NCBI GenBank assembly: GCA_963845755.1
Contig: CAWJTV010000028.1
Coordinates: 352,001 to 416,000 of the forward strand
Origin: an uncultured Planctomycetota bacterium
GTDB taxonomy: Bacteria > Planctomycetota > Planctomycetia > Isosphaerales > Isosphaeraceae
Reading direction: 5' to 3'
DNA length: 64,000 bases
Notes under the pieces: generated by a model
The model's database searches: none
Told to the model about the DNA's origin: nothing
Seen by the model: the letters and a program-made list of their open reading frames with translations, nothing else
Program-made: the position numbers and the translations under genes
Shown here: positions 12,708 through 64,000 of the stretch, piece by piece
Position numbering within the stretch: position 1 is the first letter of the stretch
Layout of the letters: the number at the start of each line of letters is the position of its first letter

Positions 12708-12729
12708 GTTCGCGCCTTGTGCAATGGAG

Positions 12730-14493: not shown

Positions 14494-14522
14494 GGAACGC
14501 GGAACGGGCCCTCCACCCAGCC

Positions 14523-15080: not shown

Positions 15081-15123
15081 GAGTCACCCCTCGAACCTTC
15101 GCGTGGATCTCGAACCCCAAGCG

Positions 15124-18689: not shown

Positions 18690-18950
18690 AAGTCTCTCGA
18701 TTACCGAAGCTCTGGAACAGGTCGACTTGGAGCCAGGACAGATCTACAGTTGTCAGGTCAAGGGACACTGGATTGAGCTACGAGTATTGCCGCCGGATTT
18801 GAACCGAACTCGTATCAGATCGACGAATCCGACATCATGCTGGATTCGTGGGTGGAGCAACCTCGGCCGAGATGAAGGATCTGCGTGCGAGCGAGGCGAG
18901 GCACTCTGCCACTGCCGAATGCCCCTGAAATCCCCTCGGACAATCACTGA
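18690..18950 (+). pseudogene. Degraded small hypothetical gene
   Basis: SLSITEALEQVDLEPGQIYSCQVKGHWIELRVL continues in another frame as IDESDIMLDSWVEQPRP followed by an in-frame TGA. Confidence 0.35.
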
Positions 18951-18959
18951 CGAATCTCC

Positions 18960-20055
18960 ATGAATAATCGAATGAATCGCCCCCTGCTGGCCTTGACGAT
19001 GGGCGACGTGGCCGGCATCGGTCCCGAGGTGATCGCGCGCGGATGGCTTGACCCTCGACTTCATGCCCTGGCCAAGATGATCGTGATCGGCGATCCCGGC
19101 GTGATGAGTCGCGCGATCAACCTCGTCGCTCCCGATCGCACGATCCGGACTCAAGTGATCGCTGCGCCCGAGGAAGCCGACCCATCAACGCGGACCATCC
19201 CTTGTCTCTCACCCTTCGGCGATCGAACGGATCTTGCCGGCATCGAGCCGGGACTGGCCGATGCGCGCGCCGGCCGCGCCGCGTTTGACTTCCTGACCAC
19301 GGCCATCGACCTCGCCCGGGAAGACCGCCTCGACGCAATCACGACGCTTCCATTGAACAAGAAAGCCTTGCACGAAGCCGGAATTCCTCATCCCGGCCAC
19401 ACCGAGATCCTGGCCGAGCGCTGCGGAGTCCCCGATCACGCGATGATGCTCTATATCGAGACCGATTCGGGCGGATCGGAAACGGCGTCCGGACGGGCCA
19501 CCTCGGGTCTGGGCGTCGTTCACGTGACGTTGCACGTCGCGCTGCGGCGGCGTTTTCGACCTTCTGAGCCAGCAATCGATCCTGTCGAAGATCCGTCTCG
19601 CCGATCGGGCCATGCGCCCCCTAACCGGAGGCCGGCAGACGCGGATCGCCGTGACGTCGCTCAACCCTCATGCCGGCGAGGAGGGTCTCTTCGGCGACGA
19701 GGAGCAGACACTCATTCGACCCGCCGTTGAGGCCGCGCAACTCGAGGGTCTCGACGCCACCGGACCGCACCCGAATGACACCCTGTTTTACCACGCTCTC
19801 AACGGCGCGTACGACGCCGTCGTGGCGATGTACCACGATCAGGGGCACATCGCGCTCAAGACCGTCGGCTTCCAGCGAGCCGTCAACGTGACCCTCGGCC
19901 TTCCGATCGTTCGCACCAGCGTGGCGCACGGCACCGCCTTCGATATCGCGTGGAAGGGCCGGGCCGATGCATCGAGCCTGATCGCCGCGGTGAGGGTCGC
20001 GGCCCGAATTGTCGCGGGGAAAAAATCAGCACCACCGATAGAACCGCTGGTATGA
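18960..20055 (+). CDS. pdxA: 4-hydroxythreonine-4-phosphate dehydrogenase (PdxA family); frameshift near 19548
   Basis: TMGDVAGIGPE, GHTEILA, HVTLHVAL | LNPHAGEEGLFGDEE, AMYHDQGHI, VNVTLGLPIVRTSVAHGTAFDIA. Confidence 0.93.
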
Positions 20056-46248: not shown

Positions 46249-48461
46249 ATGGCGACGATTCTGGTTGTTGACGACCGGCCGGAGAATCGCGAATTACTCG
46301 TCGAGATCCTTGGCTTGTCGGGTTACGAGTTGCGCGAGGCGGCCGACTGCGCCGAGGCCCTGATGATCACGCGGCGCGACCGCCCCGACCTGGTGATCGC
46401 AGATATCCTCACACCGAGGATGGACGGCTACGATTTCGTGCGCGAGGTGAGAGCCGACCGCACGGTTGCCTCTACCCCTGTGATCTTCTACACGGCCATC
46501 TATCGCCAAAGCGAGGCACGACTCTTGTGCAGAAATGCGGAGTGACCCACTTGCTGGCGAAGCCGGTGGTTCTGGAGGAGGTCCTGCGGACGGTAGCCGA
46601 GGTTCTGGGCACGACCCGAAATGAGGAGACAGCCCCGACCGCCGGTGAGATCGAACGCGATCATGTGCGACTGCTCAACAACGCAATGTTGGAGAAGGTC
46701 CGTGAATTGGAGATGGCCAACCATCGCCTGACACGGCTCATCGATCTCGGGAGATCACTGGCCCTGGAGGGTGATCTTTGTCGGCTGCTGGACCGATATT
46801 GTCGGTCCGGGTGCGACATGATCGGAGCGCGCTATGCCGTTCTGGGTGTGCTGGAGGAAAATGGGGAGGGGTTTGACGACCTCATGACCCACGGATTCGA
46901 CTCCGAGTCGGCCATCCGGCTGGACGGCCCATCGCCCGGCGAAGGTCTGCTGCGCCGCGTCGTGGTCGGAGGAGTGCCCTTGCGTGCCGGCGTCGGTGTC
47001 CAGGACCGTGTGCCGTACTTCTTCCCGGGTCATCCCCTGGCCGGAGCCTTCCTCGGAGTGCCCGTGGCCACGCCAGGGCATCGATACGGGGTGCTCGCAT
47101 TCATCGATAAACTGGGCAACGACGAATTCGACGCCGACGATGAAGCGTTGGCCGTAAGTCTGGCGGCGCAGCTTGCCGTCGCGTACGAAGGCACGCGCCG
47201 TCAGACCGAACTCGCGCGGGGTGCCGCCCGCCTCGAACGTTATGAAGAACAGTTGGCCATCCTGCGACGGATCGATCAGGCGATCCTTTCGGCAAATCAG
47301 CCCCGAGAGCTCGCTTCCGCCGTGGTGCGCAATCTCCGCCAGCTCCTCGGCTGCTGGTCTGTCGGAGTCTGGGTCTTCGACTGGGAGACCCGGACGGCCG
47401 AGCGCCTGGCCTCGGAGGGTGCGACCGAGCTATTGCTGCCCCCGGGTACGAAGGTGCCCCTGGACGCACTCGATGTCCGAGACCTCGAGGCCCTCAGCGC
47501 GGGACAGGACCGGATTATCGAGGACGTCTCGCTCTTGCCCGAACCGGCTCAGACGATTCGGATGCTCCAGACGGCTGGGCTCCGGTCGTACACCCGGATT
47601 CCGCTAGCCCTCGAGAGCCAGGTGATCGGCACGCTCGTGCTGAGCTCGGACCAACCCGGTTCCCTCGATGCGGAACAGCTCGGGATCGCCCACCAGGTTG
47701 CCGATCACCTGGCGATCGCCATGCGCCACGCGCTGCTATTTCACCAGGTGCGTACGGGAGGCGAGCGGCTGCGCACCCTCTCGCACCAGTTGCTCAAGGC
47801 CCAGGAGGAGGAGCGCCGCCGCATCGCCCGCGAGTTGCACGACGAGATTGGACAGTCACTGACGGCCGTGAAGATCAACCTGCAAGGGGCGACGGGCGGC
47901 AAATCGGCAAGGTCATCCTCGAGCTATCTCCGCGAGAGTGTTGGGCTGATCGACGTGGTCCTGCGGCAGGTGCGCAACCTCTCGCTCGACCTGCGGCCTT
48001 CGGTGCTGGACGATCTGGGGTTGGCGGCCTCGGTGCGATCGCACCTGGACCGTACCTCGAGGCGCGCGGGATTCGTCGGGTCATTCGCGGCCGACCCTCC
48101 GGAGATCCGCCTGTTGCCCGAGATCGAGACCGAGTGCTTCCGCGTCGTCCAGGAAGCCCTGACGAACGTGGTGCGTCATGCCGGGGCACGACGGGTGGAA
48201 GTCACCTTGTTCCGGCGCGGCGACCTCCTGGAGCTGGTCGTCCAGGACGACGGGGCGGGATTCGACGTCGCCGCGGCACGGCGGCGCGCCGCCCGCGGCG
48301 GCAGCCTCGGGCTCCTCGGCATGCAGGAGCGGGCCGCCCTGCTCGGCGGCGCGATCACCATCGAAGCCGTCCCCGGCCGCGGCACCAAGGTCCACCTGCG
48401 CATCCCCCTGGCCGACCCGGGATCGTCGAGAGGCCCTGAAGGCGAAGAGGAACCCCGATGA
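46249..48461 (+). CDS. Hybrid sensor kinase: REC + 2 GAF + HisKA_3/HATPase (NarX/UhpB type); frameshift near 46530
   Basis: ILVVDD...DLVIADI; EEERRRIARELHDEIGQSLT; FRVVQEALTNVVRHA, DDGAGF, GLLGMQERA. Confidence 0.9.
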
Positions 48462-49111
48462 CCGCCATTCGCATCCTAATCGCCGACGACCATACGCTTC
48501 TCCGCGCCGGCCTTCGAGCCCTGCTCGAAAACATGCCCGGCGTCGAGGTCGTCGCGGAAGCCGGGAACGGCCGGGAAGCTCTGGCTGCGGTCGAGGCCCA
48601 TCGGCCAAGCGTCGTGCTGACCGACATCGCGATGGCCGAGATCAACGGCCTGGAGCTGGCCGAGCGGCTGGGCCGCGACTTCCCCGAGATCAAGACGATC
48701 ATCCTTTCCATGCACAACCAAGAGGAGTATGTCTGCCGCGCCATCCAGGCCGGCGCGGTCGGATACCTCGTGAAAGACTCCGGCACGGTCGAGTTGGGCC
48801 TGGCGATCCAGGCGGTCGCCCGCGGCGAATCCTATCTGAGCCCGTCGGTCTCCAAACACGTCATCGCCGACTACCTCCGCCGCACCGGCAGCGACCCGCA
48901 CGGCCATGGCCTCCTGACACCCCGCCAACGCGAGATCCTCCGGTTCATCGCCCTCGGTCAGAGCACCAAGGCCATCGCCCGAACCCTGGGCATCAGTGTC
49001 AAAACTGTCGAAACCCATCGCGCGCAGATCATGGATCGCCTCGACATCTACGACATCCCCGGGCTGGTCCGGTACGCCATCCGCAACGGCATGGCCGACC
49101 TCAACGCTTAG
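48458..49111 (+). CDS. NarL/FixJ (LuxR-HTH) response regulator
   Basis: ILIADDH, LTDIAM, LTPRQREIL...ISVKTVETHRAQIM; ATGA overlap with kinase. Confidence 0.95.
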   Translation: MTAIRILIADDHTLLRAGLRALLENMPGVEVVAEAGNGREALAAVEAHRPSVVLTDIAMAEINGLELAERLGRDFPEIKTIILSMHNQEEYVCRAIQAGAVGYLVKDSGTVELGLAIQAVARGESYLSPSVSKHVIADYLRRTGSDPHGHGLLTPRQREILRFIALGQSTKAIARTLGISVKTVETHRAQIMDRLDIYDIPGLVRYAIRNGMADLNA

Positions 49112-49143
49112 AGGAAAGCCGGCTCGAGATCGGGGATTTTCTG

Positions 49144-49711
49144 ATGCGTCCCTCAGAAAGCTCCCGAAGGACAGTCGCTGTTCAATTGGCGACAATCCTT
49201 CGTGGGCAAGAGCGACGAATCGACCGAATCATGCAGCGACTCGACCAGGGGCACCCGATGCTCGCCCGCGTGCCCTCACTCGGTCAAGATGAGCGGAAGA
49301 CTTCCCTCGGCGACGGAGTCGAAGGCATCGATGAAGAAATCCAACTCGCAACGCATGCGTACTGGCGGGAGCCCGTCTTCCCGTCGATGGTCTGAGTCGG
49401 CTGGCCGCGGGTTCTCGCGACCCGCGCCCTCCGGAAAGACGTCCGCCTGGCCCGGGCGCGGCACTAGAGGAGGGCTCGAACCGTTTGAAGACGAACCGGA
49501 CTGGATTCGCCGAGAGCTCCGTGCCCTGACTCTTGACTGCGATCGGGCAAGTTCCTATCTCGCGAAGCCCGGCTGCAACGTCGTGTTGGGGATGGCTCAG
49601 TTGGCGCGGACCATGTTCAAGCGCTCCTGGATTCTCCGTTTCCTCCGAGATGACCGATCTCCCTGCGATGGTCGTGCCAACCTGTCCGCCGAACTCCGCC
49701 GGCCGATCTGA
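49144..49711 (+). CDS. Hypothetical protein(s), probably one frameshifted gene
   Basis: Two consecutive coding-like segments in different frames (MRPSESS...ERRIDRIMQRL; ...DRASSYLAKPGCNVVLG...). Confidence 0.35.
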
Positions 49712-49842
49712 TCGTAAGGGAGGAAGCCGTGATCGCCCGAACCGAACCCCGGGCAACGACCAGCGAGGGTCCGCCCCTCGCCGCCGACAAGGACGTCGCA
49801 TGTCCCCATGGGTCATCGGCGACCTTCCCCCGAGGAGGGCTC

Positions 49843-50214
49843 ATGCGACCTTGTCGAATTCTCCTGGTCGATGAGCATCACTTACTCCTGGAAGTCCTCA
49901 ACCGGTTCCTCGCGGAGGTTCCCGGAATCGAGGTCGTCGCGTGCGCCAGCGACGGCCTCGAGGCGATGTCGTTAGCGGTCGCGCACCAGCCCGACCTCGT
50001 TGTCACCAACCTGGCCCTTCCCGGTCTCGGCGGCCTGGAGTTGACCCGCTCCCTGGCCGCGGGGCCACGTGCACCTCGCATCGTCCTGATGTCGTTCCAC
50101 GACGAGTCCGAATACCGCCTCGCGGCCGACGCAGCAGGTGCCGACGGATTCATCCTCAAGCAGGAACTGGGCACGAAGCTCGTACCGATGATCCAGTCAT
50201 TCATGGAAGAATGA
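49843..50214 (+). CDS. Stand-alone receiver-domain protein (phosphoacceptor Asp replaced by Asn)
   Basis: SD gaggag; ILLVDEHH...PDLVVTNLALPGLGGLE...GADGFILK. Confidence 0.82.
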   Translation: MRPCRILLVDEHHLLLEVLNRFLAEVPGIEVVACASDGLEAMSLAVAHQPDLVVTNLALPGLGGLELTRSLAAGPRAPRIVLMSFHDESEYRLAADAAGADGFILKQELGTKLVPMIQSFMEE

Positions 50215-50367
50215 AACGACTTGCAAGACCCAACGAATTCGCCATCCACGCCGGCGCGGGATGCGGGCTGCATGGCGAGCAATCGGCGGCGATCCCTCCT
50301 CCTGGGGTCGGCTCGGCCACTCTGGGAGTCCAACCCCTGCGGTCCACAGACCCGAGAGGAGGTGACG

Positions 50368-50796
50368 ATGTTAAGAAGCCAACGGAAGGAACAGCTCGGG
50401 ATCACGCCAACTCCTCCGATCACCGCCGAGGACGACAGTCCCGACCGTCGAACTCTGCTCTACCTGCTGAGTTTCGTGCTGGCGGGCGTCGAGGGGATCC
50501 GTTCGACGCAAATGACTCCCACGCCGACGCCGACTGAATGGCTCGAGCGCTGGGACGATGACGAATACACCTATCTTGAGGCGCGGATCCCCGGCGACGA
50601 TTCGGAACTGGAACTCGACCTGAACGTCGATAACGGAGTCATCTTCGCCCGAATTCGCCGTTCGACGCGCGGACTCGGTTGTCGAGGCCGGCCCAATCCA
50701 CCCCGAGCGCCCGGGGCGGGCGGGCGAGGTGCGTGCGTGACTTGGAGACTGGGGCCCGGAGCCGGGAGGCTGGCCGATTGCGTCGGCAGGGCATGA
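50368..50796 (+). CDS. Hypothetical protein with partial Hsp20/alpha-crystallin-like segment
   Basis: SD gaggaggtg; WDDDEYTYLEARIPG..SELELDLNVDNGVIFAR. Confidence 0.5.
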   Translation: MLRSQRKEQLGITPTPPITAEDDSPDRRTLLYLLSFVLAGVEGIRSTQMTPTPTPTEWLERWDDDEYTYLEARIPGDDSELELDLNVDNGVIFARIRRSTRGLGCRGRPNPPRAPGAGGRGACVTWRLGPGAGRLADCVGRA

Positions 50797-50847
50797 GCTT
50801 GGCCGCGGGGGCAAGGAAGCTCCCAGGCCGCCTCATCGCCCCCGGGC

Positions 50848-51357
50848 CTATTTCGCTGCAGTTACCCCGCCGGGCGCGCCCACCGAATCGTCCATCGGGT
50901 GTTCCCAGCGACAGATCATGTCGTAGTCTTCCAGGCGGAAGAACCAGACCGGGTTGCGGCCGAGAAGCGTGTAGCGGACCAGCGCGGGCGACTCCGCAGG
51001 CTCAAGATGCAAGCGAACTGTGAACTGGCGCGTGTTTTCGACATCCGACTGACCGAGAATCGCGAACGAGTTGAGCCGCTGATCGGGCCGCCGCTGTTTG
51101 TCCAGGAACTTCACCGAGCTTGAATCGAAGGAAGCCGGCAACGGCGACGGGGCGTCGCGCCGTGCTCGGGGCCGATTCCAACGCCTGACGCGCCTCGGTC
51201 CAACCTGGCAGGTATCCCGGCGGAGCCGGAGGTTTGTTCCACGCGTTGCAAGCGGACGTGCTGATGGCCCCCATCGCATAGAACGCCGGGTTGCCAAGCC
51301 CGCGAATCGGCATGAGGAACATCGAGGATTCGACGTCGGCGTCGTGAGGTTCTTCAT
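50848..51357 (-). CDS. Uncharacterised lipoprotein, paralogue 1 (divergent from Cu operon); two compensating frameshifts near 51280 and 51165
   Basis: Rebuilt ...ISTSAC...EARQALESA..WRDA...FLDKQRRPDQRLNSFAILG...RQFTVRLHLEP...YTLLGRNPVWFFRLEDYDMIC. Confidence 0.65.
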   Translation of the reverse strand: MKNLTTPTSNPRCSSCRFAGLATRRSMRWGPSARPLATRGTNLRLRRDTCQVGPRRVRRWNRPRARRDAPSPLPASFDSSSVKFLDKQRRPDQRLNSFAILGQSDVENTRQFTVRLHLEPAESPALVRYTLLGRNPVWFFRLEDYDMICRWEHPMDDSVGAPGGVTAAK

Positions 51358-51556
51358 GGCGAGGAGATCCGGTCATGCGTTGCCGAGATCGGGTCTCGGA
51401 GATTTTCCGCAAGGCTCCTTGCGATTCTGACCGAACTGGGCTAGATTTGGAAGATTGAGTGCTCCAAGTGGTTCCCAATCCAAGTCTGTATCGACTCCCT
51501 TTTCGCCGGTTGGATCCGGGACTCCACGTCCCGGATCGTTGGGACGATCCATCGCA

Positions 51557-51998
51557 ATGTTGCGCTTTCACGCTCGTCGATGGTCAGGCACCGCCGCCGC
51601 GGCATGTTTGATGCTCGCGACCCTGGCCGCGCTGTTACCAGCGGAAGCGCGCGGGCTGCGATCATCCATGGGTTAAGCGTACGGTCCTATCCGATACACT
51701 GAATGACCTGAGCGTCCTCGCGCCGGTCCGTCAAGGGTCAAGTTCCGATTCCGGTTTCCCCGACGAGCCCCGGCGCCGATCTCCATGCGCGGGGGGAATG
51801 TGTTCCCGATCGCCGGACATGCCGATGACCTCCCCGGACTCCACTCCGGACCGTGTCGAGCTATGGGGCAACCTGCCTGACAGTTTCCAGCCGAAGGCCC
51901 CTGCATTGACTGCGGCATGCCCCTTTCTGGATCGCCCGCGTCCGGCTAGGACGCTTCGACCTATCGAACGTCCTCCGCGCATGATCCCCCCCTTTTGA
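51557..51998 (+). CDS. Putative secreted leader/uORF (CutF/CruR-like): signal peptide, Cys motifs, C-terminal ERPPR; frameshift near 51650
   Basis: MLRFHARRW...LAALLPAEAR(A)G|CDHPW...PCAGGMCSRSP...PIERPPRMIPPF; joining needs one indel in a (gc)n run. Confidence 0.62.
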
Positions 51999-52334
51999 TT
52001 CCTCTCATCTCGTGGACTCAGCTGGTCGGATGACCAAGGGTCGGATTCTTGACTCGCGAGGAATGACACCCTCGACGAGTCGAAAGGCCCGGCGTGTCCA
52101 TGTCGCAACATTCCTGACGTCTTTATTCGACCGAATTCTCGGGGCGTGATGCGTCCACGGATCGACGATCGGTCGGTCCCCGACCGTGCCGACGCGCACG
52201 GATCCCGCCCTTGTACCCCGGACTGGTGAGTACGTTTCGTTTGTGATTCATCTCGTATCCCTGCGAGCTGGGGGATGAGCCCGGTCTGGTCATCATCGTT
52301 TTTTTCGATTCTTCGTGCTTGAAGAGGTGCATAA

Positions 52335-53370
52335 ATGAAAAAGTTTCGAAGCGGTTTCACGTTGATCGAACTACTCGTGGTCATCGCCATCATCGCCGTC
52401 CTGATCGCCCTCTTGTTGCCCGCGGTCCAGGCGGCTCGCGAGGCCGCGCGCGGGCGCAATGCAACAACAACCTCAAGCAGATCGGGCTGGCCTGCCACAA
52501 CTACTTGAGCTCTTTCCAGTGCCTGCCCTTCGGCAAGGGTGCGAGCTACACCAATGGGGCGCAATACTACGCTCGCTGGTCCACCCACAGTCAGCTCTTG
52601 ATGTACATCGAGCAAGGGACTCTCTTCAACAGCATCAACTTCAGCCTTGCGCCATCAACGCCGGGCATGGCCGGTGATGTCGCGTTCATGCCCCCGTACA
52701 CGCAGCCGGAGAACCTGACCAGTTCATTGACCCAGGTGTCCGCGTTCCTCTGCCCGACGGACGCGACCGCGCCGACTCCCGGCTGGCCGGGCTGCAATAA
52801 CTACCTCGGCAACATGCAGACCTGGGCCTGCGATCTGGGAGATAATAACCCCTCTCAGGTTTCCCCGGGCGATGCGCCCATGGGATCTTCTACTTCTGGA
52901 GCTCGGTGGGTCTCGCCAAGATCACGGATGGCACGAGCAACACGGCCTTCTTCAGCGAAAAACTGCGAGGCAACGGGACGCGAGACGGCGACGCCCGCTC
53001 CGACTCGCTGATCACGGCGGCGCCGACTAGCCTGAATGCTACCTTCCAGACGTGCACGAGCACGCCGCTGACCGCCTTGCGGCTCACTCACGCCCAGGGC
53101 GCAAGTTGGGTCATGGGCGAAATGTGCTGCACCCAGTATAACCACGTTTCCACTCCGAACACCAAGACCTGCGCCGGGCTGGGTTTTCTCAACAGCAACA
53201 TGGCCAACATGCCGATGCAGGTTCCCCCTTCGAGCAACCATCCGGGAGGCGTGAACGTCCTCTTTGGCGACGGAGGCGCACGCTTCGTCAAGACCAGCGT
53301 TTCGCTCGTGACCTGGCGCGCCTTGGGCACGCGGGACGGGAACGAGACCATTTCCTCAGATTCGTATTGA
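52335..53370 (+). CDS. DUF1559 protein, Met/Cys-rich; frameshifts near 52450 and 52885
   Basis: [51 protein letters not shown]...|ITDGTSNT...[12 protein letters not shown]. Confidence 0.9.
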
Positions 53371-53381
53371 CGGGGGCTACC

Positions 53382-53846
53382 ATGCGAATTCTCTGGAACG
53401 AGCCTCGGCCGGCGATTCTTGCGGCTCTGTCACTGCTCCTCCTCCTGGGAACGGGGGGATGCGGGACCGGCAAGAGCGAGGGTTTACCCTCGGACGATGT
53501 AGGACGCCGGGCGCTCGAGGCGGCGCTAAACGTCTGGCGCGAGGGCGGAAAGACCGGGCCCGTGGCGGGCATGGAGCCTCCAGTCGAGGTCCACGACACG
53601 CCCTGGAGCCTGGGCGACCGCCTGTCCTCGTACGAGATCGTTGGCGAGACTAAGAGCGCCGCGGAGATGAGGTTCACCGTCCGGCTCTCGCTCGCCAAAC
53701 CGGAGCGGGTGCAGGAGGTGCAGTATTACGTACTCGGCCGCGATCCGGTGATGGTCTTTCGCGATGAAGACTACCAGCGGAATATCAACATGGTAAACGG
53801 GCCGTCGGTCACCAAACCCGCGAAGTCGGGGAAGAGACGACGATAG
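53382..53846 (+). CDS. Uncharacterised lipoprotein, paralogue 2
   Basis: Lipobox TGGC; RRALEAALNVWR...GDRLSSYEIVG...RFTVRLSLAKPE...YYVLGRDPVMVFRDEDY. Confidence 0.75.
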   Translation: MRILWNEPRPAILAALSLLLLLGTGGCGTGKSEGLPSDDVGRRALEAALNVWREGGKTGPVAGMEPPVEVHDTPWSLGDRLSSYEIVGETKSAAEMRFTVRLSLAKPERVQEVQYYVLGRDPVMVFRDEDYQRNINMVNGPSVTKPAKSGKRRR

Positions 53847-54022
53847 CGCCCCCAGAGGGATCCGCACTCCTGGCACAGCCAGGGTCTTGTCCGCGTGGGG
53901 TGCGAAACCGCCGGACTAGCCACAGGCCGGGACAACTCTGTCACGCGCGATGCGATCGACCGGCGTGACACCACCGCTCGGCGCATCCGGAATGGCGACC
54001 CGGTTATCGAAGGGGACAACCC

Positions 54023-54551
54023 GTGAGACGGCATCCACCGACACCGCCAAGCACGAGCCTGATCATCGCAGCATTCGCGGCGATGATATGTCCGTCATGC
54101 GGCACGGTGGCTGCGCGAGAAGCCGCCGAGTTTGCTGCCCGACCCGCGGGTGGCCCGGCAAGCGGTCGAGAACGCCCTGGAGGAGTGGCGGGCCTCTCCC
54201 GATGTCGATACCACGGCCGCCGACCGATCCCTGATCTTCGTGGATCGTCAACGACGACCGGGTCAACGCTTACGGGAATTCGCAGTCCTGGGGGACTCGG
54301 TGGTCGACAACCTCCGGCGTTTCGTAGTGAGGCTGTCCCTCGCGGAACCTGAGGAATCGACGCTCGCCGCTTACTACGTTTTCGGCCGTGTGGGCAACGA
54401 CCCGATCTGGGTGTATCGTGCCGAGGAATTCGATATGATGATGAATATGGACATGGCGCCCGATGATCCGGCCCCGCCCGCGAACCCATCCAGGCCCCAG
54501 GGGTCGTCGAAACCCGAGGCGGGGCGCCACCATGAGAAGAAGGCATACTGA
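54023..54551 (+). CDS. Uncharacterised lipoprotein, paralogue 3, Met/His-rich tail; frameshift near 54103
   Basis: GTG with SD gaagggga; hydrophobic stretch + CPSC; ARQAVENALEEWR...RRPGQRLREFAVLG...RFVVRLSLAEPE...DPIWVYRAEEFDMMMNMDM...HHEKKAY. Confidence 0.72.
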
Positions 54552-54609
54552 CCGTGACGCGACGGGCGGTGGTCACCTTTCCGCACTTGCAACACGCCTG
54601 GGAAGGGGA

Positions 54610-56144
54610 ATGGTGAGGATAAGGTCGATGGCGGGCGGCTCCGTCGGACACTGGATCTGGTCGGCCTTGCGATTAGCCGAGGTCCGACTGCGCGTTCCGA
54701 TCGTGCTGGTCGTGGCCGCGGTGGTGATCGGCCGATGGGAGGTTATCCGCAACTACTGGGACCGTTTCACGCGATCCTCGACGGCCCAGAACACCTTCAA
54801 GCTCCCGATCTCGAGCGACACGGAATACTTCTGCCCGATGGATCCCGGGGTCGTGTCGCACGGTCCCGCGCGTTGCGGCGTTTGCAACATGGCGTTGGTC
54901 CGCCGCAAGCGCGGTGATGCGGTAATGCTGCCCGATGGGGTCGTCGCCCGGATGCAGCTATCGCCGTACCGGATCCAGCTCGCCGGCATCCAGACTGCTC
55001 CGTTGGGCTATCTCCCCCTGAACCGGGAGTGGTCCGCCGCGGGGTTGGTCACCCGCGAGGCCGATGACTCGGTAACCATCACGATGGATGTGCCCGGTCG
55101 TCAGGCGCCTTGGGTCGAGGAAGGTCAACGGGTCGACATCGCGTGTGCCGACCTCCCCGGCCAATGGCCGCTCACGGGCAGGATCCGATCGCTGCCGCGC
55201 CGCGTGGTTCAAGGGCGGGAATTTGCTCGTGTGACCGTCGCGATCGAGAAACCGCCGCAAACGCTCCGGGGCGGCATGATCGCGGTCGTGACATTCCGGA
55301 TCGCCATGGCCGCGCTGGATCCGTTCCGCACGATGCCGAGCGGCCCGCCCGCCCGGAAGCGCGGGGAGCCGGGCGCATCTACCTCTGTCACGATCACCCG
55401 GAGACGATCGCCCTCGAGGCGGGACGCTGCCCGATCGACGGCAAGAACCGCATGCCGCAGACGTTGGGTGAACTGGAGCGGGTGCAATGGTGGTGTCCGA
55501 TGCATCCGGAGGTCACCGCCGAGAATGCAGGCGCCGTTTGCGAACCATGCGGCGGGATGGTCTTGAAACCCAAGGTGGTCTTCTTCGCACCCAAGGGCCA
55601 GGTGCTGGCCCTGCAACAGTCGGCGGTAGTCGACACCGGCGTGCGGAAAGTGGTCTTCGTCGAGACGATGCCCGGTATGTTTGACGCAGTGGAGGTGGTC
55701 CTAGGACCGCGTTGCGGCGACTTCTACCCGGTCGTGCGTGGCATCGAGCCGGGCCAAGAGGTCGCGGTCGCCGGCGCCTTCCTGCTCGACGCCGAGACCC
55801 GGCTGAATCCTAGCTTGGCCGCCGGCTACTTCGGTGCAGGCCGTGGCGATCGTGCGGCCCACGGGGCGGCACCGGCGACCACTACGAGGCGATCTTCCCC
55901 CGCTGACGGCCCATCCAACGCATCCGGCGATCCCTTCTGGGGACTGGATCCTGCGGATCGTACCCTGGCCCAAGGTCAGTCAAACTGCCCCGTCACGGGT
56001 CGGCCGCTGGGCTCGATGGGCACTCCCAAACGTTACGTCGTTTCCGGCCGGGTGGTATTCCTTTGCTGTGCGGGGTGCGAATCCCGGCTCCTTCGGGAGC
56101 CGGCGAAATACCTGGCAAAGCTGCCCGCCCCGGGTCGCCCATGA
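54610..56144 (+). CDS. CusB-like RND periplasmic adaptor with three heavy-metal-binding modules and C-terminal YHS-like domain; frameshift near 55372
   Basis: YFCPMDP..CGVCNM; LSPYRIQLAGIQTAP; YLCHDHP..CPIDG; WWCPMHP..CEPCGGM; SAVVDTG.RKVVFV...GAFLLDAETRL; CPVTG.PLGSMG...FLCCAGC. Confidence 0.85.
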
Positions 56145-59100
56145 TTGACGCGGTCATCACGTTCTCGATCCGGCATCGGGCGGCTGTCATCGCAGCCAGC
56201 CTGCTCCTGGCCGCGCTGGGCGGCTGGGCCGTGTGGGATACTCCGGTGGACGCGATCCCGGATCTCTCGGAGAACCAGGTGATCGTCTTCACGGAGTGGA
56301 ACGGGCATGGTCCGCGCGAGATCGAGGACCAGGTGACGTATCCGCTGACTCTCGGCCTGCGCGGGATCCGGGGCGTCCGGGTCGTCCGGTCGTCGAGCGA
56401 CGTCGGCTTCTCGACGATCAGCGTCATCTTCGAAGACGCGATCCCGGTCGCCGAGGCGCGACGGCGGGTAACCGAGCGATTGGCACAGGTCCAGGGGAAG
56501 TTGCCGGCCGGGATTCTATCCGAGATCGCACCGGACTCTCCTGCAACCGGCCAGATCTTCTGGTACACGGTGGAGGGGGGCAAGCTCGACCTGGGCCGGC
56601 TTCGCGCGATCCAGGATTGGTATGTCCGCCCGCAGCTCGGCTCCGTGCCCGGCGTGGCGGACGTATCCAGCGTGGGTGGTTTCCCGATCGAGTATGAAGT
56701 GGCGCCGGACCCCGACCGGCTCCGGCTCTTCGGCGTGACGCTCCAGGAAGTCCTCGACGCCGTGTCCTCGTCGAACGCCGCGACGGGCGGCCAGGTGGTC
56801 AACAAGGGGAATGCGGAGTACGTGGTGCGCGGTGTCGGCTGGCTGGGGGCCTCTCCCAATCCCGGCGACGATTCGTTCGACCCTCGGCGGCGCGATCCGC
56901 GACCTGGAAAACGTCGTCCTCCGCGCACCGGGCGGAGGAACGATCCGGCTGGCGGACGTCGCGACGGTGGCGATCGTCCCCGGCTTCCGTCGCGGTGCCC
57001 TGGAGAAAGACGGCAGCGAGGCCGTCGGCGGCGTGATCCTGATGGCGCACGGCGAGAACCCGCTCGAGGTCACGCGCCGGATCAAGACGAAGATCCGCGA
57101 GCTCCAGATCGGCCTGCCGCGCGATGTCCGGATCGTGCCCTTCTACGACCGCACCCCGCTGATCGAAGGGGCCATCAGCACCGTCAGCGGCACCGTGCTG
57201 GAAGCAATGGTCTCGGCCTCGTTGTGCGTCCTGGTGATCTTGCTCCATGTGCGCACCTCGCTCGTCATCGTCGGCACGCTGCCACTGGCCGCGCTGTCGT
57301 CGTTCCTGATCATGGGCGTCTTGCGACGGTCGGGCGTCGTGGACATCGCGGCCAACGCCATGTCGCTGGCGGGGATCGCGATCTCGATCGGCGTGCTGGT
57401 CGACTCGTCGGTCGTGATGGCCGAGAACGTCATGCACCGGCTCAAGGAGCGCTTCGGCCCGGAACCGGTGCGCGGCGACGTTCGCGAAGTGGTCTTGCCG
57501 GCCTGCCTGGCCGTCGGTCAACCCATCGTCTTCTCGGTGGCGATCATGGTGCTGTCGTTCCTCCCCGTCTTCGCACTGGGAGGTATTGAAGGCAAGATGT
57601 TCCATCCCCTGGCCTATACCAAGACATTCGCGCTGGCATCGGTCGCGGTGCTCGCGGTGACCCTGGTCCCGGCTCTGTGTACGCTCTTCATCCGAGGCCG
57701 ACTGCGGTCGGAGCGGGAGAATCCGCTGGTCCGCGGCGTGATCGAGGTCTATCGCCCGGTCCTCTCTTTCTTGATGGATCGCCCGGCGGTGCTGGCCGGG
57801 ATTCTGGGGATAACCTTCCTCCTGGGATTCGCCCCATTGGGCAGCCGAACGATCTTCCTCGGTACGCTCGTCGTGGCGATGGTGGCGATGGCGGTCTGCG
57901 CGTCGAGCCGTTGGGGTGCGGTCCTGGGTCCCGCGTTTCTGGTACTGGTCGCACTGCTGATCGAACCAAGGATCACGCCTCTGATACGCGAATTCATGAC
58001 GCCGCTCGACGAGGGAATGGTGATGGACATGCCCATCACGGTCCCGCGGGCCTCGGTATCGGAGTCGGTCGACGACCTGAAGGCGCGCGACATGGTCTTG
58101 TGCCGGTTCCCGGAGGTGGACATGGTCGTGGGCAAGGCGGGGCGGGCCGAGACGCCGACCGACCCCGCGCCGATGGACATGATCGAGACCATGGTGAATC
58201 TCCGGCCGCGCGAGTTCTGGCCGCGCCGTAAGCTCCGCGCATCCGATGCCTCCGCCCATTGCCTTGCGGTGCTCGATGCCTTGATCGCACGCCAGGTCGT
58301 CGCGCCGCCGGTTGACGCGCAGGCGCGCCGATCCCTCATCGAAGAGGCCGTCGCGCCGGCCTTGACGCAGTTCGACGCGATGTGCCGGGAGTATGCCTAT
58401 CACCGCAATCAGGAATTGGTGCGCGAGTCGAGCGGCCTCTCTCCGACCTCGACGCACCCCTCGGATCCCGCCGAGCAGCGGCTGGTCGATCCCTGGCGCC
58501 GGCATGTGGAGAAACTCGATGACGAACTGCTAATGCGCGCCGCCCCGCTCTTCACGCGGCTGGTGATGGACCAACTCCTGGAGCGTGCGACGATCATCGA
58601 CCCGGCCGTGGCGGCGCATCACGCAAACGCGGTCCGCCTCCGTGCGGCGTCGGTCGAGGCCGCCATCTCGGCCATGACGAGGCGTCCATCCGCCATCGCT
58701 GGGCACCACCACCATTCCGGCGGATATGCCTCGATCCCCCTGCTGGAGCCGCAGCCACAACTCGACGTCGTCCAGGAGGAGCTCTCCCGCCAGTTCAGCC
58801 GATGGTTGCTCTTGTGGCAGGTGGATCGGGACGAGTTGACGCGGTTCGGCGGCGAGCTGGACAATGCCGTCCCGATGCCGGGCTGGACGAACGTCTGGAC
58901 GATGCCGATCCAGAACCGAGTCAACATGCTGACAACCGGCGTGAATTCGCCGATTGGCATCCGGGTCCTCGGACGCAACCTCGAAGACGTCGTCCGCGGC
59001 TCGGAGGAGGTTGCGCGGGTCGTGAAGGGCATTCCTGGGGCCGTTGACGTCGTGGCCGACCCGATCCGCGGCAAGCCTTACATCGAAATCCGGCTCGACC

Positions 59101-60146
59101 GCGAGCGGGCCGCCCGAGTCGGCGTTCGAGCCGGAGAGGTCAACGCGCTGATCGAGATCGCCCTGGCCGGCAAGGTCGTGGCGACGACCGTCGAAGGACG
59201 CGAACGACACTCGGTCGTCGTCCGCTATCCCCGTGCTCGTCGCGAAGACGAGGACTCGGTGCGGAACCTGCTCGTGACCGCCTACGGTGTTTCCCGCGGG
59301 CCAGCCTCGGGTTCGACCTCGACGCCTCCCGATCCGCCTTCGAGCCAGATCCCTCTCTCGGAAGTGGCCGAGATCCGCGTGGTCGAGGGGCCAGCAACAA
59401 TCAAGGGTGAAAATGGGCTGTTGCGCAATTATGTGAGGCTCAGTGCCCGCGGCCGAGATTTCGCCGACCTCGTCGAGGAGGCGCGCGCCGCCGTGGCTCG
59501 CGAGGCCCGTCTGCCCGACGGAGTTTATCTCGAGTGGACCGGACGGTTCGAGCACGAGCTCCGTGCCCGAAGGCGGCTAACCCTGGTCGTGCCCGTCGTG
59601 GTCGTCCTGATCTTCCTGATCCTCTACTGGACCTATCACGACGCGGCCGACGCCATGCTGATGATGCTGGCGGTGCCCGGCGCGATCGCAGGGGGGCTCC
59701 TCTTCCAATGGTTCCTGGGCTTGAAGCTCTCGGTGACGGTCTGGGTCGGCTACATCGCCTGCTTCGGCATGGCCACGTCGACCGGAATCATCATGCTCGT
59801 CTATCTGCGCGAGGCCGTCGAGCGCGCCGGCGGCCTGGAGCGGATCAGCCTGCAAGGGCTGCGCCAGGCGGTCCTGGATGGTGCCGTCCATCGGCTCCGG
59901 CCCAAGCTGTTGACCGAAGGCACGGTCGTCATCGGCCTGGCCCCGATGCTCTGGTCCAGCGGAGTGGCGTCCGAGATCATCCGGCCCATGGCCGCCCCCG
60001 TCCTCGGTGGCATCCTGGTCGCCGATGAAGTCATCGACCTGTTCTTGCCTATCTTGTTCTACTGGGTGCGCCGACGGCGGTGGTTGAGGCTGCATGCTCA
60101 CAGCCGGATGGTTGAACCCGACGCTCAACCCATTCCTGAGTCCTGA
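56141..60146 (+). CDS. cusA: CusA-type heavy-metal RND permease (Cu+/Ag+), with large insert; frameshift near 56884
   Basis: PVDAIPDLSENQVIVFTEW, EDQVTYPL, MSLAGIAISIGVLVD, EGKMFHPLAYTKT, KAGRAETPTDPAPMDMIET, RLRPKLLT; Met triad equivalents conserved. Confidence 0.92.
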
Positions 60147-60325
60147 GTTACGCACAGATACTGCACCCTTGCCCCGCGGGGGACCGGATCGGATCCGCCT
60201 CCTCAACCGCAATTGGCCTGAAGATTGCAGTGATATGTGATTGTTGGCTCGGCCGATTTCGGTTGTCTCGGCCGTGACAATCTCCGTTGCACAACGACAC
60301 CGATCTTCATGAGGGTTGAGATCCG

Positions 60326-60694
60326 ATGAGACGGTTTCTCCGCGTACTCCTCGTCGCCGGCCTGCTGGTCGGCGGCCTGATGTTCGGGACGAGCCCCGCC
60401 CAAGGCGGTCCCTTTCGCCGCGGCTGGGGCCCCTTTGGCGGGTTCGGGCGTTATCGCGTCTATCGACCGGCCTGGGGTTATGGGTATGGTGGCTATCGTC
60501 CCTACGGCTATCGTTACGGCTGGGGAGGATACGGGCTAGGGTATCCGGCCTATAGCTACGGTTATGGCTATCCCGGTTACTACAATCCCTACTTCGGCGG
60601 GATGGGAATGGGATATCCGGGCTACTACGGTACCTCGGTATCGATCGGCGGTCCCTATGGTGGCGGGCTGTATGTCGGCTCCTACCCGTACTGA
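60326..60694 (+). CDS. Small secreted Gly/Tyr-rich protein
   Basis: Signal peptide ending PAQG; GYGY/YPGY low-complexity body. Confidence 0.75.
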   Translation: MRRFLRVLLVAGLLVGGLMFGTSPAQGGPFRRGWGPFGGFGRYRVYRPAWGYGYGGYRPYGYRYGWGGYGLGYPAYSYGYGYPGYYNPYFGGMGMGYPGYYGTSVSIGGPYGGGLYVGSYPY

Positions 60695-60796
60695 GTTCAA
60701 CCCAAGGTCGGCCTGTACTCGCGTTATTTTCAAGAGGGCCAGGGTCGTCGGGTCAGCTCAGCCCGGACCTTGGCCCGCAAACGTCGAGTTGGAGGC

Positions 60797-63700
60797 TCAC
60801 GGCTCGTTGAGAGCCTTGGCAACCACCGTCGCGATCGTGTTGGCGTGGACATACACCGCTTCCAGCTTGCCAGCCGGACCGATCAGGAAGACCGAAGGGA
60901 TCACTTGAACGTGATAAGCATCCTGAGCGCCTCCCTCAGGCCAGTCACCCAGGAAACCTTGTGTCCATCGGAGTCCTTGCTCAGCGGCGACGTTGCGTGA
61001 TGCCTCCTTGTCGCCGTCGAGACTCAGGCTCACCATCGCGAATCGTTCGTCCGCGCCGAAGCGGTCATGAACGGCCTTGAGCTCGGGCAACTCAGCGATG
61101 CACGGCGCACACCAGCTCGCCCAGAAGATGAGCAACACGTGCTTGCCCCGATAATCCTGGAGCTTGATCCGACGACCATCGAGCGACGCGGCCTTAAACG
61201 GTGGTGCCAGCTCTCCGATCTTGAGCATCCGCCTCGGCCTGGGCCGCAGTATGCCGAGATCGAATGGCTGGCCACTCGCTGCGCCGGGGACCTCGGGAAT
61301 GCGGAACTGGCGGAACGCGTGGGCGGTTCGTTCGGGAGACCGGACGCGCATAGAGATCGGGTCAGTCGTGTAGGTCAGTGTCAATTGGTAGTCTCCGGGT
61401 GGAAGGTCCTCAACCCGAACGGTTCCGTCCGATTGGAGCGGAGCCCACTGAAGCTGGAACCAATCCCGGCGATATGCCCGTCCCTCGGGGGAGGCCCGCC
61501 ATTTTCTGGCCCACTCGATCATCGACCCATCGCGGCGGGCGAGGAGCTCTTGGGGATAGGGGATCATTGGTCGATCGCTCCCGATATTGAACGCGGAAAA
61601 CGACGTATAGTCGGCATTCGGATCGAAGCCGAGAGGCGGCGCGATCCTGGCCACCAAGGCGCGACCTGATCCACCCATCTTGACCTGGGCCACTTCTCCG
61701 GACTTGACCTCGACGAGCGTTCCGTTCGTTGATGCCTGAAGGCCTGACGCCCGCCTCTCGTATTGAAACGCAACCCGCACGTCTCCCGGGATGACGCGAT
61801 CGAAGATGAAGCGGCCTCGTGCATCGGCTTTCGTCCTGCCTGAAGCCAAGACATAGGGTATGTCGCGATTGGCGATGCGATCGGAACCATAGCGGATCTC
61901 GGCACCCGATGCCGGCTTGGCCCCCGTGCGGGCGAACCCTTCGAGACGACCCCACGGACCGGCGGTGATCGTAGAATTCTTCTCGAGGGCCGCTCGATCG
62001 ACCTCGGCATAGAACTCGGGATGGACGACGATCACGGCCCACGCTTTCCCGGCGGGGCCGGGCTCGCGGAGGCTCCGGAAGCGTCCCTGAGCATCGGTCT
62101 TCACAATGGCCTGGTCCTCCACGGGTCGAATCTGACCATCCTCGATATGAACCCTGGGCAGGGGGGATGGACCCGCAATCATCGGATAGGTCACGACGAC
62201 TTCCGCCCCTTCCAGGGGCGTGGCGTCGGGTCGGTGCACGATGCCCGTGACCAAGACGCCTTGCGGCTTCTCGGCCTTCGTCAGCTTGACGTCATATTCC
62301 ACCTGCCCCTCATCGCTCTGGAAGACGCGCGACTCGAACGGTTCGTACCCCTTCGCCTTGATCCGGAGCCGGAACTGGTTCGCCTTCTCGGTGTCGAGCG
62401 AGGCTTGCAGGTATCCCTGGTCCACAAAGCTGCGCGAATTAGCATTCCACGACACTTTGCCGGTATCGCCTTTCACGATGCCAACCTCGAGCTCAGCCTT
62501 ATCGATGGGATTGTCGGTAACGGCGTCGCGGACATGACCGCTGATCGACAGCTCGCGCCTGAGCGTCAGCACGATCTCACCGGAATCGGGCGTGGCCCTC
62601 TGCTGGAAGACATCCGAATAACCGGTGCGACTGGCATCGACGAGAACGGGATCCGCCGGAGCATCCTCCCACCGAAACCGGCCGTCGGACCTGGACTTGA
62701 GGAACACCCTCGGAAATCGGCGGCCGCGCCAGGTGTCGATGTGGACGAAAGCGTCGGGGATCGGTCGATTCTGCGTATCCACCACCCGGCCCGCGAGGAC
62801 ATGCGGAGGTCCCAGTGTCACGACGACCGGCTCGACCCGGTCCGTGGCTGCAACCGGCTTCATCTCCGGCGCGTGGCCCCGGGCCTTGACTCGAAGCATC
62901 ATCCGTTTCGGACGAACGTGCGGAAATCGGAACTGCCCCTGAGCATCGGTGATCGACAAGGGCGCATCGTCGTAGGGGCCCGGGTCGCTCGCTTCAAAGC
63001 AGATGACCTCGGCGCCCGCGATCGGCTTGCCCGCCTGGTCCGAGACTGTACCGGCGATCGCGACCCCCCGGATCATGACCTGGCGATCCGTGAAATCGCG
63101 CAACGCCTGCATCGGCTGTTCGTCCGGCTTGGGTGGATTCGATGGCCTCGGCTGGCCGTGCTTCCGCGGATAGGAGTCCCCATCCGCGACATAATCCGGG
63201 TGCGAGAGGAAGAGGTAGGCGAACGTCATGTTGCGGAAGGAGCGGCCACGCCACCGGCCTTGCTGGTCGGTCTGAGCGTCCACCATCCAGGCCAGCTCAT
63301 GTTTCTCCTTCTTCTCGCCGAGGTAGCCCGAGATCCGAACCTTCACTCCCGCCATCGGATGTCCCTGTTCATCAACGACCGTGCCACCCAGTGTTTGCTC
63401 GCTGGGCAATAACTCGACCGTGAACTCCCCGGGGATCTTCGCAAATCGCGGATTGTTCTGGGCAAATGAGTGGCGCTGCTGGACGTAGCCCTCGGCCCAG
63501 ACGTCGAGATTCAGCGTGTCCTGAAACGAGTCGTGGGACAGATTGATGCGGATCCGGCCGTCGCGGTCCGTTTTCCACTCCGGATGCACGAGATCCCGCG
63601 TGGAACGGACCGTCGCCGAGGCCAGCGGCTTGCCAGTGTCCTTGCCAACGACGATGACCTCGATCGCCCCTTGGGGTGCGTTGACCACGGTCTTCGCCTT

Positions 63701-64000
63701 CTCATCCGGCGTGGCCTGAGTTGTCTCCGGCGGCACAATGGCCTTCGTCGCCGCGCGGGCCAGCTCGATCGAGCCGAGCAACCCGGTGATGGCCAGGAGA
63801 ACCGCGGCGACCGCCAGTCTCTCCGGCCACGGCAGCAGGCATCGCGACGATCCCCGGCTCTCCTCGATCCACGCCAGCCGCCGGCCGAGCTTCGTGATGT
63901 GCGCCATTGCCAGTCCAAGACCCGGTTCGGGTCGCCGGACCAATCCCGAGGCGACCGCGATCAATGACGCTCGGTACGCAGAAGCCCCTCCCATTGCAAA
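60797..64000 (-). CDS. BlaR1/M56-type protein with carboxypeptidase-regulatory-like repeats and C-terminal TlpA redoxin; starts beyond window end
   Basis: AYRASLIAVA...LAMAH.TKLGRRLAWI (end of M56); repeated G.V.D..G.PIAGA.V...TDAQGRF; LLIFWASWCAPC. Confidence 0.82.
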   Translation of the reverse strand, partial: FAMGGASAYRASLIAVASGLVRRPEPGLGLAMAHITKLGRRLAWIEESRGSSRCLLPWPERLAVAAVLLAITGLLGSIELARAATKAIVPPETTQATPDEKAKTVVNAPQGAIEVIVVGKDTGKPLASATVRSTRDLVHPEWKTDRDGRIRINLSHDSFQDTLNLDVWAEGYVQQRHSFAQNNPRFAKIPGEFTVELLPSEQTLGGTVVDEQGHPMAGVKVRISGYLGEKKEKHELAWMVDAQTDQQGRWRGRSFRNMTFAYLFLSHPDYVADGDSYPRKHGQPRPSNPPKPDEQPMQALRDFTDRQVMIRGVAIAGTVSDQAGKPIAGAEVICFEASDPGPYDDAPLSITDAQGQFRFPHVRPKRMMLRVKARGHAPEMKPVAATDRVEPVVVTLGPPHVLAGRVVDTQNRPIPDAFVHIDTWRGRRFPRVFLKSRSDGRFRWEDAPADPVLVDASRTGYSDVFQQRATPDSGEIVLTLRRELSISGHVRDAVTDNPIDKAELEVGIVKGDTGKVSWNANSRSFVDQGYLQASLDTEKANQFRLRIKAKGYEPFESRVFQSDEGQVEYDVKLTKAEKPQGVLVTGIVHRPDATPLEGAEVVVTYPMIAGPSPLPRVHIEDGQIRPVEDQAIVKTDAQGRFRSLREPGPAGKAWAVIVVHPEFYAEVDRAALEKNSTITAGPWGRLEGFARTGAKPASGAEIRYGSDRIANRDIPYVLASGRTKADARGRFIFDRVIPGDVRVAFQYERRASGLQASTNGTLVEVKSGEVAQVKMGGSGRALVARIAPPLGFDPNADYTSFSAFNIGSDRPMIPYPQELLARRDGSMIEWARKWRASPEGRAYRRDWFQLQWAPLQSDGTVRVEDLPPGDYQLTLTYTTDPISMRVRSPERTAHAFRQFRIPEVPGAASGQPFDLGILRPRPRRMLKIGELAPPFKAASLDGRRIKLQDYRGKHVLLIFWASWCAPCIAELPELKAVHDRFGADERFAMVSLSLDGDKEASRNVAAEQGLRWTQGFLGDWPEGGAQDAYHVQVIPSVFLIGPAGKLEAVYVHANTIATVVAKALNEP

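Follow-up and report, generated by a model that had tools for sequence, protein, structure and literature searches.

We examined a 64,000-nt window (contig positions 352001 to 416000) of contig C28, which is 446 kb long and belongs to the genome of an uncultured planctomycete of the family Isosphaeraceae (14.3 Mb in 49 contigs, 64% GC, marker completeness 87.9%). Named homologs, from Paludisphaera, Tautonia, Singulisphaera, and Tundrisphaera, point to the same family. Positions 50848 to 60146 of this window hold eight features, seven protein genes and one ATGA overlap, which form a cluster around a Cus-type efflux pump of the resistance-nodulation-cell division (RND) superfamily (Table 1). The genes encode a lipoprotein on the opposite strand (lipoC), a small secreted protein (SPX), a pilin-like DUF1559 protein, two further lipoproteins (lipoA and lipoB), a CusB-like membrane-fusion protein (MFP; the adaptor), and a CusA-type permease of the heavy-metal efflux (HME) branch of RND proteins. 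A preliminary description, made from the letters of the window, had listed most of these genes. Pfam and NCBIfam domain matches bear out the identity, order, and orientation that it gave for the DUF1559, CusB-like, and CusA genes; the two co-oriented lipoprotein paralogues and the divergent third one correspond, by sequence paralogy, to lipoA, lipoB, and lipoC; and the overlap of the adaptor stop with the RND start is genuine. What had been taken for an upstream open reading frame (ORF) encoding a leader peptide (51557 to 51676) is actually the signal peptide of the SPX gene, which is frameshifted here and intact in relatives, the rest of the protein continuing in another frame past the break. 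A long ORF that begins at ATG 56811 proved to be an internal piece of the RND gene.

Table 1. Features of the cluster, with the basis of each call and the frameshift sites located by ortholog-guided tblastn. The starts of lipoC and of the adaptor are approximate.
Feature	Positions in window	Strand	Basis	Frameshift site(s)
lipoC, divergent lipoprotein, putatively NTF2-like, "HWEHxM" subfamily	50848 to ~51322 (start 51322 or 51376)	-	ORF, reading frames, ortholog-guided tblastn	~51156-51170
SPX, small secreted Cys/Pro-rich protein, ~146 aa	51557-51998	+	Intact orthologs, tblastn, hidden Markov model (HMM)	~51645
DUF1559 pilin-like protein, Met-rich subfamily	52335-53370	+	PF07596, TIGR02532, TIGR04294	~52451 and ~52850-52885
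lipoA, lipoprotein, putatively NTF2-like, "INMxNGP plus basic tail" subfamily	53382-53846	+	Unbroken ORF, AlphaFold2 model	
lipoB, lipoprotein, putatively NTF2-like, Met-rich C-terminal motif and His-containing tail	54023-54551	+	ORF, tblastn	~54106-54114
Adaptor (MFP), CusB-like, with HMBD domains	~54610-56144	+	Pfam HMBD, HlyD_D23, TIGR00999	55370/55371
ATGA overlap, adaptor stop and RND start	56141-56144	+	Reading frames	
CusA-type HME-RND permease	56141-60146	+	TIGR00914, PF00873	~56881-56892
RND periplasmic-loop-2 insertion, ~207 aa, with His run	58233-58853	+	Gap between TIGR00914 positions 641 and 651	

The RND gene is read in two pieces, both of which match PF00873 and which score 225.5 and 633.5 bits against TIGR00914; each lies below the cut-off of 701 bits, and their sum lies above it. 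An intact ortholog of 1,302 aa (locus L020) has E. coli CusA as its best PDB match over the whole length (E value 2e-204), followed by ZneA (3e-129). Methionines of this ortholog align with M573, M623, and M672 of CusA, a numbering checked by counting in the alignment, and the same three motifs are present in the translation of the window. Among 72 related loci with an RND gene (see below), strict regular expressions recognised the M672-type motif in 62, the M623-type in 58, and the M573-type in 53; by this measure 47 loci have all three, the counts being those of the automatic matching. By their sequences, the pump and the adaptor are members of the Cus type.

Relative to CusA, the permease carries an insertion of ~200 to 207 aa between residues 637 and 647 and a further one of ~45 aa between residues 555 and 556. 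The larger insertion holds a run of four His in the window, corresponds to L020:7948-8526 in the intact ortholog, and matched no Pfam family. We considered whether it might substitute for an outer-membrane factor (OMF) and rejected the idea, because an OMF-linked paralog on contig C43 of the same genome and other OMF-linked loci carry an insertion in the same place; the insertion is common to the whole planctomycete CusA-like clade, OMF-linked or not.

From its N-terminus, the adaptor comprises a transmembrane helix, a first heavy-metal binding domain (HMBD1, 54826 to 54900), a beta-barrel, HMBD2 (~55380 to 55439), HMBD3 (55488 to 55574), a membrane-proximal domain, and a C-terminal Cys module (~55983 to 56081). 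The HMBD model (PF19335) matches the window adaptor at 31 and 26.9 bits (cut-off 23.6) and its orthologs in up to three stretches. Across 22 adaptor sequences, no cysteine of the three HMBDs or of the C-terminal module varies, and these modules are predicted to bind metal. HlyD_D23 (PF16576), the barrel-sandwich model of CusB, is matched solely at its positions 143 to 214 of 214, and TIGR00999 in its C-terminal portion, at positions 199 to 271; similarly, phmmer reaches CusB and SilB through the C-terminal membrane-proximal domain only (SilB, E value 1.1e-10). An AlphaFold2 (AF2) model of the adaptor ortholog from genome G015, built from 22 sequences (predicted local distance difference test score [pLDDT] 77), shows neither a lipoyl domain nor, from residue 57 to residue 390, a helical hairpin, and a linker precedes its small C-terminal Cys domain. 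Foldseek searches with this model returned ZneB (1.3e-7), CusB (3.5e-7), and BesA (2.2e-4). The profile matches and the model show that the adaptor keeps the beta-barrel and membrane-proximal domains and is without the lipoyl (barrel-sandwich) and alpha-helical domains; one ortholog (L015) retains part of the lipoyl domain. In adaptors of this kind, the lipoyl and alpha-helical domains are the parts that reach the OMF, and the beta-barrel and membrane-proximal domains are the parts seated on the pump. The paralogous adaptor on contig C43 matches HlyD_D23 at positions 2 to 214 and aligns without a break with CusB residues 29 to 318, lipoyl and helical parts included.

The two pieces of the DUF1559 gene score 74.9 and 49.7 bits against PF07596, with further matches to TIGR02532 (prepilin N-terminus, 35 bits) and TIGR04294 (H-X9-DG, 31.8 bits), and an intact ortholog reaches 168 bits against PF07596 and also carries the N_methyl domain. 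The first ~65 residues match solved pilin helices (9egp, 5.8e-10; GspG, 1e-5); the globular part (~280 aa, PF07596) has no solved relative by sequence. DUF1559 proteins form the largest paralogous family in planctomycetes; Planctopirus limnophila has 68 of them, including two that are essential (PMC10632474), and a single DUF1559 piece gave 149 high-scoring segment pairs (HSPs) by tblastn in the genome studied here. A full-text literature search, in which PMC5352709 and PMC10632474 were among the papers naming the family, found no function for it. The cluster protein belongs to an orthologous subfamily distinguished by two Met-rich inserts, PGMAGx (extended by 13 residues not shown) and GxMANMxM, which are present in all ten cluster-type rows of our alignment (A3) and in none of six other paralogs. 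A complex prediction for the DUF1559 protein (residues 28 to 347) and lipoA (residues 18 to 137) of genome G002 scored 0.39, against 0.41 for the control, and was used neither way. Elsewhere in the window genome, a second region (L031, C41:606000-625999) holds a tandem array of four DUF1559 genes and two lipoprotein paralogs, with no RND gene; the DUF1559 gene at 8188 to 9258 (- strand) of this region is of the Met-rich subfamily and has an even longer Met run ahead of its H-X9-DG motif.

The three lipoproteins are paralogs of one unnamed family. A search with lipoA gave 105 close homologs, and the number of cluster representatives in the family is 1,627 at E ≤ 0.001, falling to 953 at a threshold of 1e-10 and to 249 at 1e-30; no match was found in Pfam (to E ≤ 10) or in NCBIfam. 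An AF2 model of lipoA (pLDDT 85) is an alpha+beta cone, and all of its top structural matches are NTF2-like. The agreement is middling (with 3fka, a VIA Z score of 6.6, which is under 8, and a root-mean-square deviation of 3.4 over 87 residues; best Foldseek E value 6e-3), and the model points, at that strength, to an NTF2-like fold. A CusF-like fold was rejected on the grounds of the alpha+beta model and the lack of a PF11604 match. Members of one subfamily are placed after DUF1559 and end in INMxNxP followed by a basic tail; those of the other precede the adaptor or are divergent, and end in a motif of His, Trp, Met, or Cys (HWEHxM, HWECPM, or MMMHMDM), often with a His-rich tail. Scoring of 115 lipoprotein segments assigned 42 to a HW[EDQMN][HCMNQ]-type C-terminal motif, 36 to the INMxNxP type, and 37 to neither. 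In the ESM Atlas, the nearest named cluster to lipoC (query L016:3503-3997) is DUF3828, the family of YbjP, at 0.83, a weak lead that is backed neither by Pfam at E ≤ 10 nor by a PDB profile search.

SPX orthologs are intact in four loci (L013, L014, L016, and L017) and share the motifs AGC[DN]HPW, SPCxxGxCS, RVELWG, and [IL][ED]RPPR. SPX has no Pfam match at E ≤ 10. Its nearest named clusters in the ESM Atlas (query L016:4327-4770) are DUF2946/CzcI at 0.90, with only 89 to 95 shared features; this kinship is likewise a weak lead that Pfam does not back at that threshold.

The genes are real and their clustering is conserved. When 185,579 species genomes were scanned with the adaptor alignment, 520 relatives were obtained, of which 79 loci were kept and searched with HMMs built in this analysis. 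RND genes were found in 72 of these loci, lipoprotein genes in 65, DUF1559 together with lipoprotein genes in 63, SPX in 30, and an outer membrane efflux protein (OEP) gene in six; no locus combines OEP with DUF1559 or a lipoprotein, and eight have neither set of partners (four of them are cut at the adaptor). Within the same family, lipoprotein genes occur in 15 of 24 genomes, and 11 of 12 loci examined have DUF1559, lipoprotein(s), and adaptor together, with an RND gene seen in nine of the 12 in the DNA scanned. The proposed synteny across Planctomycetota is borne out by these counts (63/79 and 11/12). Three gene orders were found, one colinear, one divergent, and one that reads DUF1559-lipoprotein-adaptor-RND-lipoprotein, the last in metagenome-assembled genomes labelled Pirellulales and in Schlesneria, and this type of cluster spans several genera and families. 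In two loci (L064, 10454 to 17589, and L068, 10428 to 17090), ~7 kb of other genes lie between adaptor and RND.

The window contig has no match to OEP/TolC (PF02321) along its length, against 39 domain matches in the whole genome, and none was found on the cluster contig in any of five relatives. The single CusF match of the genome (PF11604) is on contig C33, so the earlier statement that the locus has no TolC/CusC-type or CusF gene stands after a genome-wide domain scan. No OEP gene was detected in the 65 loci that bear DUF1559 or lipoprotein genes, across the three gene orders and several genera, with a home-made OEP HMM whose sensitivity was not established and which found six loci. In five of those six OEP-linked loci, the adaptor has an insertion of 340 to 390 nt relative to the hairpin-less profile. 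One OMF-linked arrangement lies in the window genome itself (L032, C43:70000-89999), where a divergent OEP gene (4087 to 5010, - strand) accompanies a full-length HMBD adaptor (6542 to 8155) and an RND gene with the insertion (8671 to 12815).

The two arrangements follow the phylogeny of the pump. In a quick IQ-TREE analysis that used the N-terminal 560 residues from 50 RNDs and from four paralogs of the window genome, rooted at the midpoint and leaving out 22 RND loci with split or cut hits, all 39 RNDs linked to DUF1559 or lipoprotein genes fell into one group (Shimodaira-Hasegawa-like approximate likelihood ratio test [SH-aLRT] support 88). Its sister group of seven RNDs (support 91) contains four of the five OEP-linked rows and the C43 paralog, and both groups lie inside a clade with a support of 100. 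The system lacks two hallmarks of CusCFBA, namely the linked OMF and the lipoyl and helical domains of the adaptor, and it has Met/His-rich partners that are new and conserved.

Our preferred reading, in which we place about even confidence, is that the cluster encodes a form of Cus-type Cu(I)/Ag(I) RND efflux that is conserved in planctomycetes and specific to them, and in which the periplasmic handling of the metal would have passed to DUF1559 and the lipoproteins. Cu(I)/Ag(I), already suggested in the preliminary description, is the likely substrate of the pump; the assignment gains support from the three methionines kept from CusA, the HMBD modules of the adaptor, and the Met-rich inserts that are particular to the DUF1559 subfamily of the cluster. 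The proton-driven pump would move Cu(I)/Ag(I) from the cytoplasm and from the surface of the inner membrane. Around it, the adaptor with its many HMBDs, the DUF1559 protein with its pilin-type anchor, the lipoproteins, and SPX would form a periplasmic chain of metal carriers. Such a chain may fill the roles that belong to CusF, the adaptor hairpin, and CusC in E. coli, and the metal would be either passed outward or kept away from its targets. HMBD modules, DUF1559, lipoproteins, and SPX may have replaced the arrangement of hairpin, OMF, and CusF in a single evolutionary event. A bolder version, which we regard as distinctly doubtful, would make DUF1559 and the putatively NTF2-like lipoproteins the alternative outer part of a trans-envelope pump, which at a single point in evolution took the place of the adaptor hairpin and of the channel of TolC type; pairs of this kind might then be how planctomycetes in general link transporters of the inner membrane to the outer envelope, serving export in this cluster and uptake in other settings.

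Several observations weigh against the preferred reading. In a wider set of 64 long DUF1559 segments, PGMAG occurs in only 50 and MANM in only 33. The pair of DUF1559 and lipoprotein is, judged from gene content, a general module and not specific to copper, because such pairs are also found far from any RND gene (in another family, five of 20 genomes have a lipoprotein gene directly after DUF1559 with no RND nearby, as does a second locus in this genome). The C-terminal motifs and His tails of the lipoproteins vary, with the 37 segments noted above fitting neither motif, and His-rich tails would equally suit Zn, Ni, or Cu(II). Four loci (L034, L043, L079, and L085) carry neither set of partners despite at least 5 kb of upstream sequence, and seven of the 79 have no RND gene in the DNA scanned. 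In locus L033, genes for TPR and LarA proteins and a 3-keto-disaccharide hydrolase follow the adaptor, with no RND within 9 kb; the region in which these non-RND genes succeed the adaptor runs from 10516 to 19518. The tree is a quick one with a midpoint root, and its two key supports, 88 and 91, are below the 95 mark. Moreover, the split between OEP-linked and DUF1559-linked pumps follows one branch of that tree, and is one evolutionary event rather than 79 independent observations.

OMF independence is the part of the preliminary description on which the evidence divides. That no OMF gene lies beside the cluster was confirmed, and independence gains an argument from the adaptor, which lacks the lipoyl and helical domains that the OMF-linked sister group keeps. 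Yet the 39 OEP domain matches elsewhere in the genome amount to roughly 20 OMF genes, and each of the five relatives has 18 to 43 matches. The loss of the hairpin alone is no proof of independence, because BesA, the adaptor of a Borrelia pump, is hairpin-less and works with an OMF (PMC4446572). These OMF genes, the BesA precedent, and a similarity to CusA that extends over the full length of the RND protein, regions after the insertion included, all fit a tripartite Cus-type pump of the ordinary kind, which would take its OMF from another locus in the way that AcrAB makes use of TolC. The hairpin-less adaptor would allow direct contact between the RND protein and the OMF, the arrangement put forward for BesABC, and DUF1559, the lipoproteins, and SPX would be no more than CusF-like feeders or a buffer. 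We consider this a serious possibility, if on balance an unlikely one, for two reasons: the sister group has an OMF gene beside its pump (6/79 loci) whereas the DUF1559-type pump never does (0/65), and the adaptor has lost both the lipoyl and the helical domain, a greater loss than that described for BesA (PMC4446572).

The occurrence of the DUF1559 and lipoprotein pair without an RND, in the five of 20 genomes and at the second locus mentioned above, could also mean that the cluster serves copper supply or sequestration (metallation of cuproenzymes, or storage) rather than detoxification, with the pair acting as a capture device. CusA-type RND pumps are exporters, and the loci examined have neither a cuproenzyme gene nor an importer gene that is conserved next to the cluster; we judge this explanation improbable. 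The same pairs away from any RND, together with the sheer number of DUF1559 genes (149 HSPs for one piece), would be expected if DUF1559 and lipoA were neighbours by chance. This is highly improbable, given that in 63 of 79 loci, which represent several families and three gene orders, an orthologous, Met-rich DUF1559 gene has remained next to the pump gene. Least credible is that the locus is a decaying cluster of pseudogenes with real frameshifts. Seven single-base frameshifts do fall within 9.3 kb, in six of the seven protein genes (lipoA is unbroken), and the independent evidence at hand, a 267-nt contig from a short-read soil metagenome, covers one of the seven sites only, that in the adaptor. 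At this site, the contig has one extra G in the G run at 55371 to 55373, is otherwise identical to the window, and restores the adaptor frame; it is one of three DNA contigs from the soil study that we compared, the other two of which show relatives only. Other RND genes of the same genome are likewise split between frames, relatives are unbroken at all seven sites, a genome of the same genus (G001) is intact at the break sites of the window and broken at other places, and similarity to orthologs, by tblastn, is undiminished on either side of each of the seven breaks. For these reasons, the frameshifts look like assembly errors rather than decay.

Many long genes throughout the genome are split into adjacent frames (e.g., C43:78670-82670, C29:143415-146595, and C11:695923-698995), a pattern that fits the homopolymer indel errors of long-read assembly, and gene calls in this genome need a frameshift-aware reading.

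An Rfam scan of positions 50700 to 60900 (E ≤ 1) gave no match and so indicates no riboswitch in the long 5' region. Predicted promoters (1, against 1.5 in shuffled sequences) and terminators (5, against 4.8) were no more frequent in the locus than expected by chance. Upstream of the cluster (46527 to 50537) are genes for a GAF-HisKA_3 histidine kinase (46527 to 48461), a NarL-type response regulator (48458 to 49111) that overlaps the kinase gene stop to start, and a second receiver domain (49729 to 50214). We rejected the histidine kinase and response regulators as members of the system, the kinase being syntenic in just two of 12 related loci. Downstream, a gene convergent to the RND gene (60797 to 63994, - strand) encodes a protein of 1,065 aa that combines two carboxypeptidase-regulatory-like domains with an AhpC/TSA thioredoxin-like domain at its C-terminus; synteny of this gene is confined to the same-genus genome.

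A literature search on copper efflux in planctomycetes and Isosphaeraceae, HMBD adaptors, and H-X9-DG proteins returned nothing on this cluster. One Met-rich subfamily of DUF1559 and an unnamed lipoprotein family are now tied to a pump with a predictable substrate, so that binding and knockout experiments are straightforward to set up in cultured strains that carry the cluster (Singulisphaera sp. PoT, locus L072; Tundrisphaera lichenicola P12, L052; Paludisphaera soli JC670, L065). The two sister clades also amount to a natural experiment in efflux: the same pump has a full adaptor and an OMF in one of them, and the pump-proximal half of an adaptor plus new partners in the other, a contrast that is relevant to the route by which substrates of RND pumps cross the periplasm.

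Among the closest known systems is CusCFBA of E. coli, with which the cluster shares an RND protein whose best PDB match is CusA and which has the three methionines, an adaptor with the beta-barrel and membrane-proximal domains of CusB, and an overlap of adaptor stop and pump start as in an operon. The planctomycete locus is unlike CusCFBA in having no CusC-type OMF and no CusF, in an adaptor that lacks the lipoyl and helical domains and has three HMBDs and a C-terminal Cys module, in the ~200-aa insertion of the RND protein, and in the addition of DUF1559, putatively NTF2-like lipoproteins, and SPX. DUF1559 has the prepilin cleavage and methylation N-terminus of type IV pilins and type II pseudopilins (PilA, GspG, and Geobacter PilA-N); unlike in these proteins, the match ends at ~65 residues, and the locus has no pilus assembly genes. 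The HME-RND operon czcCBA of Cupriavidus metallidurans has, immediately upstream, a gene for CzcI, a small protein of the periplasm. SPX resembles it as a small secreted protein encoded upstream of HME-RND genes, the ESM Atlas similarity being the weak lead given above, and differs from it in lacking a Pfam match at E ≤ 10 and in having Cys and RPPR motifs of its own.

The adaptor is comparable with BesA of the BesABC pump of Borrelia burgdorferi, which has no alpha-hairpin and is among the Foldseek matches. BesA serves a multidrug pump with an OMF and is described as missing only the hairpin (PMC4446572), whereas the planctomycete adaptor lacks the lipoyl domain too, has no OMF gene linked to it, and belongs to a pump with a predicted metal substrate. 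YbjP is a lipoprotein partner of TolC in the AcrAB and MacAB pumps, as reported in eLife (2026, PMC13082787). It binds the OMF, for which the cluster has no gene, and unlike YbjP the planctomycete lipoproteins have neither a Pfam DUF3828 match (E ≤ 10) nor a PDB profile match; the likeness, for which the ESM Atlas result for lipoC is a lead only, is an analogy between small lipoproteins tied to an efflux machine.

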